A DNA stretch of 64,000 nt, from assembly GCA_036172245.1 (NCBI GenBank), contig JAYWIR010000006.1:5022001-5086000 (forward strand), read 5' to 3'. This document shows positions 8,510-13,682 of this stretch, piece by piece. Under the pieces are notes generated by a model. That model saw nothing but the letters and a program-made list of their open reading frames with translations, had not been told where the DNA came from and made no database searches. The DNA is from Raillietiella orientalis. Lineage: Eukaryota. The translations under genes and the position numbers were made by a program. The number at the start of each line of letters is the position of its first letter. The stretch's first letter is position 1.

Positions 8510-10816
8510 ATGGCCGATGTTTTCTCTCAAACCAACGCAAATGAACTTCTTCGTGATAAAGCAGTGAAAATCATTGGAGATTCTAGTGAGTGAAGACTTA
8601 ATATATGAATTGTGCATGACAGGTGTTTGGCGTGATCATCTTACCCCACACCCATTTACGACTTATTGTTTGCTTCATTGTTACTGATATATAGTGATGT
8701 AGTACGTATGTATGTAGTCTAAATTCATTTGCATGAGTTACTTACGTTAGTATCTGCAAAAACTGGTAACCTGCAAGTTAATTTGGTTTATATAAATAGT
8801 ATACTTGTGTGGATCAGGATAAATATTGTGATTGGATTGCATCCTTCGATAAAGAAGCATCTTAATATGGCTTAAAAGTGCACGAATATCACGTTGTAAG
8901 GCAGTTTCTGTTGTTATCGTCAAATATTTAAACCTTTTTGCGCTTTTGAAAAGTTGACATTTGCGCCCAACCCAGTCTTGAGTTTAATCAGATGTGAGCT
9001 TTCATCTGTCAAAGAGTAGACTTTGACTGAATGCATCCGTTTGTTAAAGAGCCAATGAGAGTTGAGTTTTTTAATGAATCTTTACCCTGATCTTTGCAGT
9101 TTTTTTTTATTATTTGTGTGGAAATATTTGTGGATCTGCTCACCAGGTAGTTTAGATTCATAATTCAGTAAGGCAGTTGTCATGGTAGAATTTGTTTTAT
9201 GTTCTATCTGAGAGTTTAAGTATTCAATAGAGTAAGATATGAGTATCATCCTATTGCGAGGTTTGTGATTAATTGATGCTAAATTGCATACACATTGGAG
9301 CTCATTTGCAAATTACTTGTTCATCTTCCGAGGAGATGAATCAGGATCTGATCATGTCGAGATCTGTTTCCACAGCGTGCATAGTTTTCGTTTTGCACAC
9401 TTTTGCGTATTTGGCATTTCTTTGGCTACTTGGAATCAGCATATCAGTCATGCAGGACCCTGTCTCTTCTAACTTGAACCACATTTATGCTTTGGTTCCA
9501 CTGCATTCACAGATTTCCAGTGCCATTTTGGCTCACATTTATTAAGGCAGTGTTACTGTTTTCATGCATCTGTTGGCATTTTGGCTAATGGACCTCAGTC
9601 TTTCCTGCTGTGGTTCTGTCTGTGGAGCTGCAAGCTCAATCACTTTCAGTAATGCTTAATTTTTACTGGCATGAAGAAGGCTTTTTTTGAGGAGGGGGGG
9701 GGGGGAGAAAATCTATGTTATTGATATCACCCTCATCCTCACCCCACCCCCCAAATCAAATCTCATAGGGGAAGTTTGGATTTATTTCCTAACCAATCAT
9801 ATCTTCAACCAAAGATTTGTTTCACATGTAGGTTTCAATGAACTCGAAAGATAATTGTGAACACATACTTTAAAGATAGGAACATGAAAAATGGATGATT
9901 AATGATAGTGTGCTTCTTATTTATGTACCTTCTGGTTTTCACATGTGCCGATTTGCAGCCAAACCGAGGCTACAAAGTTTATCCGTGTGAGTGTGAATGT
10001 GTATTTGAATAACGCCGGTTCAACTTTGGTGTCTTTTTTCCATCGTGAATGTGGTGTTTCAAAGATTTGAGGAAAAAAATTTTATAGATGCGGATATGTG
10101 ATTTCCAACACCTAAATACGCCCGCATGCCGCATTTTCCCCATAAATGCTTGCTGTCAGTGGTTTTGATGCATTGCCATTTCAAATGGGTGCCCAGACTT
10201 TCATCAAAGATGGCAAACTGAACTTGGTTTTCAGTGTCTAACTTTGGGAGCAATAGAATCAATAAAAAACAGAAATTTTTGGAAAAACTTGAGTAACTTC
10301 CGGCATTGCCTTATCTCCTGTGAAAAGTATTGCTTGAATTTATCGGTGAACTTTAGGGTAAGAAATGCTATTTCACACCTTTAACTGTAACTTTACCATT
10401 ACTTGCAAATGTATGGCAGGTTCGACCGGGCTGAATCCCTGTTTTTGATTCCTTCCTCTGCTCGCGACTGAGAAACGTGTCCGACAACCGATCGTTAAGA
10501 AAGCTTTGTGAGAATGGGAAAGACGACTTTCAAGAAAATGCAAATGCTTGAATTCTGTAAGGGAACTGTTCCCGGAGGGAACTTTCAGGATCTGCAGTGT
10601 TCGTGATGGTATATAATATGACTAGTATGTAGATGGACTAGTACGATGCACCCCTCATCCGTTTGCTGAAGAGTTCCCTAAGCACGTTTCCTTCACAAAG
10701 AAGATCAAGCCCCCAAACGGAAGCGTCAGGATGTTCGTTCTTCCCTTTTTTGACCTGTGGGAACAAGTAAACGGCTCCATAGGTCCGAACATGTTCCCCC
10801 CCCCCCCCATCAAAAG

Positions 10817-10849
<33 letters not shown>

Positions 10850-12345
10850 AAAAAAAAAAAAGGATGAATTCCTTATGTATTGATGTGAAATCAAGAGCTT
10901 GTTTGTTTACTGTGGTGCCAGGCATTGATTGTTTCCGACCTACTTCTTCAAGGAAGACTGGAACAAGGAAGTAGGCTTCCACGAGGCATTCATGTGGATT
11001 TCCGAAATCTTAGTAAACGGGAAATTGATACTTGAGATACTTTATGTCGACTCGTAACTGTGTACAGCTTGGGTAAAAGCTTCTCGTTAGGTCCTGCATG
11101 CATATTGCTTGGGCAATAAAAAAAAAAGAAAAAAAGAAGAAAAAGCAAGGCTTCCTGGATTTTTTGCCACTCGACCATAAATTGCAGGAAAAAAAATTCG
11201 AAAATCGACCCGCGTCATTCACGCAGTTGTCGTAAGAAGTGAAGATTGCCTTAAGTGTTACGTGTTGGTAGTGTTAAATGTTTATCAAGATCGTTCCGTC
11301 GGAGGTGTGTGTGCGTGTGCGTGCGTGAAATGTTAAACAAATGTACTCTCCAGATATGATGTCGTTGTATAAGGACCTGGTGTGGCTGCTGGCCACGAAC
11401 TCCGAGACCCCCGAGCCCGTTTTGAGAAGCAAGCAGCCGGAGTCTGTCGTGTTTGGTGAAAGACTAGTCTTCGGGACTGTCCTGTCCGCCAGCCGAAATT
11501 ACCGTGAAGAACGAGAGTATTACGTATACCCTATGTTTTTTGTTGATTTTCCACAGTCGTAATGACTGCGCAGCGTCAGCGAGTGTTGTGTTTGCGATTC
11601 CGTGTGAAGAATTTTGCTCGTCTCTAATCACGCGGCTTTCCATTCGCAGCAGCAAAATGTGCACGTCAGCTGCCATTTCGTGACTCGTGCGTACGGCGAT
11701 TATGTACAGGAAGTTCTGGACGAAATCGTGGCTGGGAAACGCCGAGCGCCGGATGTGCTGGTCATGAATTCCTGCCTCTGGGACTTGTCCCGATGGGGTC
11801 CCACAGGAGTGTTCAGCTATAAAAGGCACCTGAAAAAACTGATGGTCAGGCTGGAAGAAGTGCTGGGATCGCACTGCCTGATCATATGGTGCTCCGCTCT
11901 ACCGCTCTCGCAGGACGTCCGCAAGAACTTCCTCGTGCCCCAGGCAAGTTCCCCGTAAGAGTTGGCGAGGGGGAACGTCTTTCCACAGTTAGCCTTCCTG
12001 CCGCAAACTCTGCGGCTGAACATATTAGAGGCCAATCAGTTCGCCCACAACTTGGTGCGAGAACATTCGTTCGACTTTTTGGACACCCATTACCACTTAA
12101 GGCTGCACCTCGACCTCCGCAGCAACGACGGGGTGCACTGGAACCCACTGGCCATGCGGCACATTACAAATTTGCTGTTGACCCACGTATCGCTGTCATG
12201 GGATCATTCCTTGCCCCTCAATTTCACATCGGAGCAATTAGAGAGAGTCGTTTGCTTAGCCAGGAAATCCCGCAAAGGAGTTGTTGTTGCCTCACGCCGT
12301 GTGTTGAAAGCACGAAGGCGTGTTCTGGCCCGACCCGACCCGTAG
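8510..12345 (+). CDS. PCED1A: PC-esterase domain-containing protein 1 (FAM113, SGNH/GDSL-like), 4 exons
   Basis: Exon 1 8510-8585 (MADVFSQTNANELLRDKAVKIIGDS) joins in phase 1 to exon 2 11354-11523 (NMMSLYKDLVWLL...NYREERE). Exon 3 11650-11943 has PDVLVMNSCLWDLSRWG and exon 4 11989-12345 has ILEAN...DGVHWN. The GDS and DGVH motifs are intact. Confidence 0.9.
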
Positions 12346-12481
12346 CAAGCCCAAACCTTGGAAGCATCTTTTTTGCCCCCTCCCCCCCCCCCCCTTTTTT
12401 TTTTCCTATATAGAGGAGTCTTTTTATATTTATATATACATACCGCAGTATGGAAACTTTTATGTTTTGAGTATTTTTGAA

Positions 12482-12487
12482 AATAAA
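12482..12487 (+). terminator. Putative polyadenylation signal of PCED1
   Basis: AATAAA about 137 nt after the PCED1 stop codon, followed by T-rich sequence. Confidence 0.5.
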
Positions 12488-12625
12488 AGGAGCTTTTGCA
12501 TATATATGTATATATATATATTTATTTTTTTTTAAAAAAAAAAAAAAGAAAAGAGAGAGAGAGAGAGAGAGAGAGTTGAAAGTCCAGAGTTGATTGTGTG
12601 CCAGGATGTTCTTTTGCTTTTTCAG

Positions 12626-13682
12626 GGCAGAAATCGAAACAGCACAGTGGTCTGTCTACCGTTTTACTGGAAGACTGTGGAAAATTGCTGGCGGCCTTCA
12701 GTGACATGCAGTCGCTTCGTTATCAGGATTTCGCCCAAGTGTGGCGCAAGCACAGTTTCTCCTTAATTTATTGGTGAGAAACTTACTTTCTGGATCGGCA
12801 GCTGGCTAACGATTAAAGCAGTGGCCGGCAAAGCTTTAGGGACCTCCTGTCATTTGCGGAGTGCGCCCTGCACATTGCCAAACAGTTTTGGTTTCCTCCC
12901 CATCAGTTTGCGATCCGCGTCGGTGCACTGTATCTCCTCTATGGCCTTTATTACAAGCAACCGTATAGGTGAGCCTCCTGGGCCCAATGAGGCAGCGATT
13001 GTTTTAGGTACTTGGCCAAGATTCGCCTTACGTGGTCAGAGTTGCTGGAAGTGCGCTGCTTTATCAACCACATAATAGCCGAGGAACACCATGACATTCA
13101 TTACGTATACCATAAGCTGTGGAGCGATCAGGCGTTTGTTTTTGCAGCCACACCTCGGCCTATGGGACCTGATGTATTCTACACGCCCACGTCGGTCATC
13201 AAAGGCAGCCTTTCCGATAGCGCGGATTCTTCCGGCTTGCGAGGTCATGTGTTCGACAAAGTAATCAGCCACCTCAGTGTAATGCACCACGATTACCAAA
13301 AGTTTCGGAGCTTGATGTACAAGCAAGATAACGAAACACACCCCAACGTCATAGAAAAGTTGAAAAGTTGCCTGGTCCCACAGAGCGCCGCCCCGAAGGT
13401 TTCGGATCCTGAAAGTGCAACCAGAGATGACATCGGTGAGTTCGGGACGTCAACGTGCTTTTCCACCCCTCGTGTGTCCGCGAAGGTGCCCGGCGCGCTG
13501 CCCTCAGGCAGAAGGCCTTCAGTTGTACCGCAGCGTCGAATCCACATGCACGCTTGTCCCAGAAGAGCGCCTTGTCCCAGTCTCAGGATGTCGCCGACGC
13601 CGAGACCAGAGCGCCCGGAGGCGGTGAACCTCCCGTCGGTGCGTTCGCAGTGGACATGCCCGACATCACAGACAAGCCTTAA
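12626..13682 (+). CDS. SNAPC1: snRNA-activating protein complex subunit 1 (SNAP43/Pbp45); initiating exon not identified
   Basis: Exons 12626-12773 (LLEDCGKLLAAFSDMQSLRYQDFAQVWRKHSFSLIYC), 12822-12968 (GRQ...FAIRVGALYLLYGLYYKQP), 13008-13435 (KIRLT...YHKLWSDQAFVFAA) and 13486-13682 (GARRAALRQKAF...MPDITDKP*). These match the SNAP43 N-terminal domain pattern. The last exon boundary is less certain. Confidence 0.9.

Follow-up and report, generated by a model that had tools for sequence, protein, structure and literature searches.

In a 64,000-nucleotide (nt) stretch of Raillietiella orientalis DNA (GenBank assembly GCA_036172245.1, contig JAYWIR010000006.1, positions 5,022,001 to 5,086,000 of the forward strand; hereafter the window, numbered from its first letter), we find a SNAPC1 gene whose first homologous exon is conserved, opens behind a strong splice acceptor and has no start codon. 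Immediately ahead of it, and in the same orientation (+), lies an unrelated gene that we call PCED1-like. This arrangement is real and more than chance. Judging from the sequence, we put the odds at somewhat better than even (roughly 0.55) that the AUG of SNAPC1 comes from an upstream exon that is spliced in cis across the PCED1-like gene. SNAPC1 is subunit 1 of the snRNA-activating protein complex, a core factor for the transcription of small nuclear RNA (snRNA) genes. The features of the locus on which the argument draws are listed below, with slashes here and in the text marking splice sites.

8510-8585, + strand: PCED1-like exon 1, from the ATG through 25 codons to ...IIGDS plus one base (phase 1), donor CTA/GTGAGT
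8586-11353, + strand: PCED1-like intron 1, 2768 nt
11354-11523, 11650-11943 and 11989-12345, + strand: PCED1-like exons 2-4, the donors of exons 2 and 3 both in phase 0
12346-12625, + strand: gap of 280 nt, low-complexity, with a C-run, a T-run, TA repeats, an A-run and a GA repeat
12482-12487, + strand: AATAAA, the likely polyadenylation (poly(A)) signal of the PCED1-like gene, followed by a T-rich, A-rich, (GA)n stretch
12609-12630, + strand: pyrimidine tract with two CAG acceptors, which relative to the SNAPC1 frame end in phase 1 (12625) and in phase 0 (12630)
12626-12773, + strand: first homologous SNAPC1 exon, without a start codon; 15 residues, then the conserved D-C...LL...F helix, running to ...LIYW
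12840-12968, 13008-13435 and 13486-13682, + strand: SNAPC1 exons 2-4, with introns of 66, 39 and 50 nt and the stop TAA at 13680-13682

Sequence comparison identifies the downstream gene as SNAPC1 beyond reasonable doubt. Three of its exons match Pfam PF09808 with 34.9, 51.1 and 35.6 bits (cut-off 23.8), covering profile positions 2-190 of 191, and SNAPC1 chains in the PDB match the first homologous exon (E = 2.5e-5 and 8e-5). All three introns are of the GT-AG type, an open frame of 300 codons runs from 12628 to the terminal TAA, and neither a stop nor a frameshift interrupts the four exons across their 902 nt. Because the exons and the three short introns are intact, the gene looks functional. 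A full HMMER search with SNAPC1 exon 3 returned seven matches (best E = 3e-6, about 30% identity), including a bivalve and a centipede protein. We used six of them as homologues in the comparisons below and left out the seventh (P0123), a protein of 1793 residues in which the match comprised only residues 211-264. Word-indexed protein searches with SNAPC1 exons 1 and 3 gave no match.

What the locus lacks is a beginning for this coding sequence. In the SNAPC1 frame, a TGA stop at 12577-12579 is followed by no ATG until 12706. Between 12300 and 12780, ATGs occur only at 12450, 12462, 12506, 12606 and 12706, the last being the only one in the SNAPC1 frame and the first in any frame past the acceptor. 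This ATG (12706-12708) is located 14 residues into the Pfam SNAPC1 domain, and the corresponding score is 35.9 bits for 12628-12774 vs. 20.5 bits for 12706-12774; that is, about 15 of the roughly 36 Pfam bits of the exon lie upstream of it. The residues encoded ahead of this Met can be aligned to the N-terminal D-C...LL...F segment in the six homologues, as well as to residue 7 onwards of the 368-residue SNAPC1 chain in the PDB (7zwc). Given the homology upstream of 12706 and the lack of an earlier in-frame ATG, the coding sequence must begin further upstream. An earlier prediction made from the sequence of this locus (hereafter the original prediction) held that initiation at 12706 would cut off the conserved LLEDC segment, and both the Pfam bits and the alignments to the homologues and to the PDB chain bear this out.

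The same comparisons suggest how much is missing. Ahead of the conserved Asp, the SNAPC1 exon encodes 15 residues, compared with 11-28 in the six homologues and nine in the PDB chain. The initiator methionine stands 11-28 residues ahead of the D-C motif in 6/6 homologues, whereas a complete start is absent at this locus. On these alignments, the missing part of SNAPC1 is the start codon and little more. We also observed that the ATG at 12606, which lies inside the pyrimidine tract and has an A at -3, opens a 32-codon out-of-frame open reading frame (ORF) ending with TGA at 12702-12704. This stop falls one base before the in-frame ATG at 12706, a layout (TGA-C-ATG) that resembles a stop-restart arrangement.

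Homologous SNAPC1 sequence opens directly after the acceptor TTTTTCAG/G at 12625/12626. In its longer context, this acceptor reads AGGATGTTCTTTTGCTTTTTCAG/GGC, with the intron end at 12625 and in phase 1. It has 14/17 pyrimidines at -20 to -4, compared with 7-12 in the other six acceptors of both genes, and it is located 280 nt past the PCED1-like stop (TAG, 12343-12345) and 139 nt past the AATAAA, which is the sole AATAAA or ATTAAA in 12300-12700. Upstream of it, the gap contains no ATG with a phase-compatible donor after it, and no donor-like GT above 3/7 on a simple donor consensus. On the same consensus, four of the five GT donors scored in the two genes reach 4-5/7 and the fifth reaches 2, the GC donor at 11943 being outside the scoring set. 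These results reproduce the strong phase-1 acceptor of the original prediction, together with the distances it had given from the stop (280) and from the AATAAA (about 140), and they agree with its description of the gap as low-complexity and devoid of a usable ATG exon. A start exon inside the gap was therefore ruled out as a source of the AUG.

Two observations on frame and phase belong to the same segment. Firstly, the two CAG acceptors are 5 nt apart, and each of the three PCED1-like donors (phases 1, 0 and 0) is in frame with one of them, which may be a coincidence. Secondly, the last PCED1-like exon and the first SNAPC1 exon share one genomic reading frame (12301-12640) with four stops between them. 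Stop read-through from the PCED1-like gene into SNAPC1 was ruled out, since these four stop codons intervene.

The upstream gene, which we rebuilt from the sequence, is a 298-residue ORF in four exons (8510-12345, +). Exon 1 is 76 nt long, self-matches the spliced gene model and ends in phase 1 at a GTGAGT donor, in keeping with the phase stated in the original prediction. Intron 1 (2768 nt) is about 20-70 times as long as the other five introns of both genes (39-126 nt). PCED1-like introns 2 and 3 measure 126 and 45 nt, respectively. The latter (11944-11988) is a phase-0 GC-AG intron (CAG/GCAAGT ... CACAG) that is required for the 298-residue frame to be open. Complementary low-complexity runs occur within intron 1, namely a G-run against a C-run (9692-9704 and 10796-10808) and a CA repeat against a GT/GC repeat (10817-10845 and 11305-11327). 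These runs could reflect pairing in the pre-mRNA or be chance microsatellites.

Enzymes of the SGNH/PC-esterase type carry two motifs, GDS with the nucleophile towards the N-terminus and D-x-x-H towards the C-terminus. By eye, the 298-residue model shows such a GDS plus D-x-x-H pattern, with IIGDS closing exon 1 and DGVHW in exon 4, which we take to be the SGNH/PC-esterase nucleophile and histidine motifs. No PCED1-like exon matched Pfam at E up to 1. In an Atlas feature search with exon 3, all leads scored below 0.9 and were mostly SGNH/GDSL, NXPE or PC-esterase clusters, while the top row (0.84) was an unnamed cluster without a family. For the PCED1 identity put forward originally, the two motifs are present, whereas Pfam gave no match and the Atlas leads remained below threshold. 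Considering this weak tool support for the name, we refer to the gene as PCED1-like.

The exon at 12626 combines the best acceptor of the locus, an open frame and conserved coding sequence 13 codons on with the lack of a start, and this combination argues that it is an internal exon of SNAPC1. We propose that an upstream exon ending in phase 1 would provide the AUG, perhaps with only a few codons, and would be joined to the acceptor at 12625/12626. The SNAPC1 primary transcript would start within or upstream of the PCED1-like gene and would pass the PCED1-like poly(A) site. The PCED1-like exons would be removed within the first SNAPC1 intron, and the two genes would overlap on the same strand. 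The use of the acceptor at 12625, splicing in cis and the position of the donor are all steps that we infer from the sequence.

Several points weigh against splicing from an upstream exon. The ATG...GT candidates in 6000-12600 are no better than expected by chance, and only PCED1-like exon 1 stands out among them. With the T-rich stretch behind it, the AATAAA has the look of a competent poly(A) site, one that the SNAPC1 transcript would need to bypass. Two genes overlapping on the same strand are uncommon. Finally, we found no complementary bridge between the donor at 8585 and the acceptor at 12625, low-complexity pairs being the only ones present.

There are two candidate sources of the upstream exon. 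SNAPC1 may have a first exon of its own, under its own promoter and most likely located within PCED1-like intron 1 or in the GMPPA-PCED1 interval; this is a tentative explanation to which we give about a third of the weight. The shared use of PCED1-like exon 1 as the donor, the version put forward in the original prediction, appears unlikely, at somewhat more than a fifth. We rank the two in this way because same-strand overlap is judged commoner than the sharing of a coding exon. The sequence is equally compatible with both, and we hold the separate exon to be no less likely than the shared one. In ordinary same-strand nested genes, the small first exon of the host lies far upstream and another gene sits inside the first intron. 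The present locus differs from these in that the window yielded no convincing candidate for a first exon specific to SNAPC1. Weak ATG...GT candidates within PCED1-like intron 1 include 9923-9986, 9074-9146 and 10413-10419. The last of these, ATGGCAG/GTTCGA, is the small exon that the original prediction had listed among its alternatives, and its sequence is indeed present.

If the exon is shared, PCED1-like exon 1 would serve as a common first coding exon, with its donor spliced either to 11354, giving the PCED1-like product with polyadenylation at 12482, or to 12626, giving SNAPC1. SNAPC1 would then carry a 25-residue PCED1-like N-terminus that includes the GDS motif. The fuller regulatory picture, in which one promoter and one 76-nt coding exon serve both a PCED1-like esterase and SNAPC1 while the proximal acceptor and poly(A) site compete with the stronger distal acceptor, is slightly less likely still. 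In favor of sharing, both sides are in phase 1: joining 8585 to 12626 leaves an open frame over 325 codons, as the original prediction had anticipated when it described this junction as a continuous frame, and joining 8585 to 11354 gives the 298-residue product. The exon 1 donor scores 5/7 on the donor consensus, and the distal acceptor (14/17 pyrimidines) is stronger than the proximal acceptor of PCED1-like exon 2 (9/17). The lack of an ATG exon in the gap, as well as the position of the AATAAA inside the would-be intron, 139 nt before the distal acceptor, also agree with this arrangement, for which a precedent that likewise involves a phase-1 intron exists in Su(var)3-9/eIF2gamma, as described in PMC1435931.

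Other results count against a shared exon. The phase match is a 1-in-3 chance event and is therefore weak evidence by itself. The PCED1-like N-terminus occurs in 0/6 SNAPC1 homologues, which come from other lineages and are about 25-35% identical, and the shared product would have 41 residues before the D-C motif, compared with 11-28 in the six homologues. By our estimate, which is not a computed figure, gene pairs that share an exon are rarer than ordinary same-strand nested genes. A further way of linking the two genes, a PCED1-SNAPC1 fusion through the donor GCC/GTGTGT after 12298, had been named as an alternative in the original prediction. The sequence is present and such a fusion is possible but unsupported, the donor being weak (3/7).

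The closest known system is the Su(var)3-9/eIF2gamma pair of dicondylian insects, in which 79-84 N-terminal residues are described as shared, with a common promoter and 3' alternative splicing, and in which a phase-1 intron of eIF2gamma houses the Su(var)3-9 exon (Krauss et al. 2006, PMC1435931). Like this pair as it is described there, the arrangement proposed here from sequence alone would comprise two unrelated proteins, one promoter and a shared N-terminal coding exon. As in the insects, the specific part of one gene and its own 3' end would be placed within a phase-1 intron of the other, and both cases would belong to the pancrustacean lineage. The two differ in that the shared insect N-terminus belongs by homology to the downstream gene, eIF2gamma, whereas here the 25 residues would belong to the upstream, internal PCED1-like gene. 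Furthermore, the inserted insect gene is described as one large exon, while the internal PCED1-like gene has three further exons.

Mammalian pairs offer a second comparison. For NUP62/IL4I1, the first two NUP62 exons are described as shared and the promoter as common (PMC1198218). We read these exons as probably non-coding. In CPNE1/RBM12 and more than 20 other human pairs, the promoter and 5' untranslated region (UTR) are described as shared and the coding sequences as totally different (PMC2568002). As in the mammalian pairs so described, the downstream gene would be expressed from the promoter and first exons of the upstream one, with a choice between splicing and polyadenylation. Unlike the shared part described for CPNE1/RBM12, the exon proposed to be shared here would contribute a start codon and 25 codons. 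A literature search pairing SNAPC1 with PCED1 returned nothing relevant to such a gene pair, and neither a protein-pattern scan nor an exact 30-nt scan of metagenome contigs detected a related locus.

Among the explanations that do without an upstream exon, the most plausible, although improbable, is that SNAPC1 has its own promoter in the TA-rich, GA-repeat gap. The pyrimidine tract and CAG would then be unused or would end a short intron in the 5'-UTR. Translation would start at 12706, following the 32-codon upstream ORF or once that ORF is removed; alternatively, it would start at a near-cognate codon, for example the GTG at 12598, which is in frame, or one of the CTG codons. This version has the simplest anatomy, and most genes have a promoter directly upstream. 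Moreover, the ATG at 12706 is in frame and has a G at -3, no other ATG in any frame lies between 12626 and it, and the upstream ORF ends one base before it. However, a start there would drop about 15 Pfam bits of a conserved helix that is still encoded in frame, and the near-cognate codons are in poor context (T at -3 for the GTG). The gap has no donor above 3/7, and the ATG at 12606, with its A at -3, would capture scanning ribosomes.

Operons resolved by spliced leaders are known in nematodes, tunicates, flatworms and rotifers, and an operon-like pair would be the next candidate. The precursor would be cleaved at the poly(A) site, and SNAPC1 would receive a spliced leader either at 12626 or, behind the second AG, at 12631. 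The locus has the classic layout for this, with two genes on the same strand and a strong acceptor 139 nt past the AATAAA, just as the downstream gene in such operons begins at a strong acceptor about 100-150 nt past the upstream poly(A) signal. It departs from them in that a downstream cistron normally has an AUG of its own past the acceptor, whereas the first AUG here (12706) is inside the conserved domain. The second CAG, which ends at 12630, is in phase 0, so that the frame would fit a leader with a terminal AUG; leaders of this kind are not known outside flatworms.

The lineage of the organism bears on the same question. In a search among proteins of 159-508 residues, a DDX41 exon from the window was 77-82% identical to arthropod, mollusc and priapulid proteins, while an Atlas search with this exon was taxonomically uninformative. 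A quick tree of this single gene, built from 26 named and 12 unnamed sequences (38 of the 120 listed proteins), placed the sequence within a pancrustacean clade of 15 rows with a Shimodaira-Hasegawa-like approximate likelihood ratio test (SH-aLRT) support of 98, outside the insect (94) and isopod/barnacle (93) subclades and on a rather long branch. We treat the DDX41-based placement in Pancrustacea as a lead only. Most pancrustaceans are not known to trans-splice. The placement speaks for a spliced leader and matters here because leader trans-splicing is reported from this group for copepods (PMC4664967) and amphipods (PMC5111886). On the other side, as printed in these two reports, neither the leader of the calanoid copepod nor any of the four from Parhyale contains an ATG. 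With leaders lacking an ATG, translation would start from 12706 and the conserved helix would be lost, leaving the start problem unsolved. In addition, no sequence resembling the copepod leader (up to 3 mismatches) occurs in the window, an Rfam scan of the window gave 0 matches (as did a tRNA scan), and both GMPPA and DDX41 in the window start with an ordinary ATG. Taken together, we regard leader trans-splicing at this locus as quite improbable.

A 5'-truncated SNAPC1 duplicate without exon 1, untranslated or decaying while a working gene lies elsewhere, would begin exactly at an acceptor and without a start, as expected of a copy whose break lies within an intron. SNAPC1 is usually single-copy, which counts against such a duplicate, as do the four exons and three introns that are intact over 902 nt and the lack of a second SNAPC1 copy within the window; we consider it just as improbable as a spliced leader. 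The least probable explanation is that the T-runs at 12606-12625 are off by a single base, through an error or a polymorphism. One T fewer would bring the ATG at 12606, which lies 20 nt upstream of the exon and one frame off, into frame; the gene would then be an ordinary one, its promoter would lie in the gap, and its D-C motif would be preceded by 22 residues (within the 11-28 of the homologues). The window is rich in homopolymers. However, indel errors left no trace elsewhere: the DDX41 exons keep their frame through 7/7 homopolymers of at least 5 nt, and all PCED1-like and SNAPC1 exons are in frame. The stretch also resembles a pyrimidine tract with CAG rather than coding sequence.

The consequences depend on which upstream exon is used. 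If PCED1-like exon 1 is shared, the locus would represent a second, independent gene fusion of the Su(var)3-9/eIF2gamma type and its mirror image. A downstream housekeeping gene, SNAPC1, would have captured the exon with the catalytic motif of the upstream gene as its N-terminus, which would make the locus a rare natural experiment in gene fusion and N-terminus sharing. The dosage of an snRNA factor would also be tied to how an unrelated esterase is expressed and how its 3' end is processed. If the AUG comes from a separate upstream exon, the locus would be an ordinary same-strand overlap, of interest mainly as a caution to annotators. Gene prediction programs would either begin SNAPC1 at Met 12706, with loss of the conserved helix, or fuse SNAPC1 to PCED1.

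Pfam searches on long ORFs identified the following neighboring genes in the window.

4056-5640, - strand: GMPPA-like nucleotidyl transferase, with its own ATG
35700-38000, + strand: calsyntenin (cadherin, laminin-G and CLSTN_C domains)
40180-40970, - strand: RING finger with a ZIP-like stretch
57830-58330, + strand: PNRC motif protein
59270-61400, + strand: DDX41/abstrakt

The region 20000-30000 is GC-rich (50-58% GC). Both of its strands contain numerous long ORFs, the longest of 399 residues, with no Pfam match. Overall, the window represents animal DNA, and its introns are very short, those of DDX41 being about 45-55 nt.

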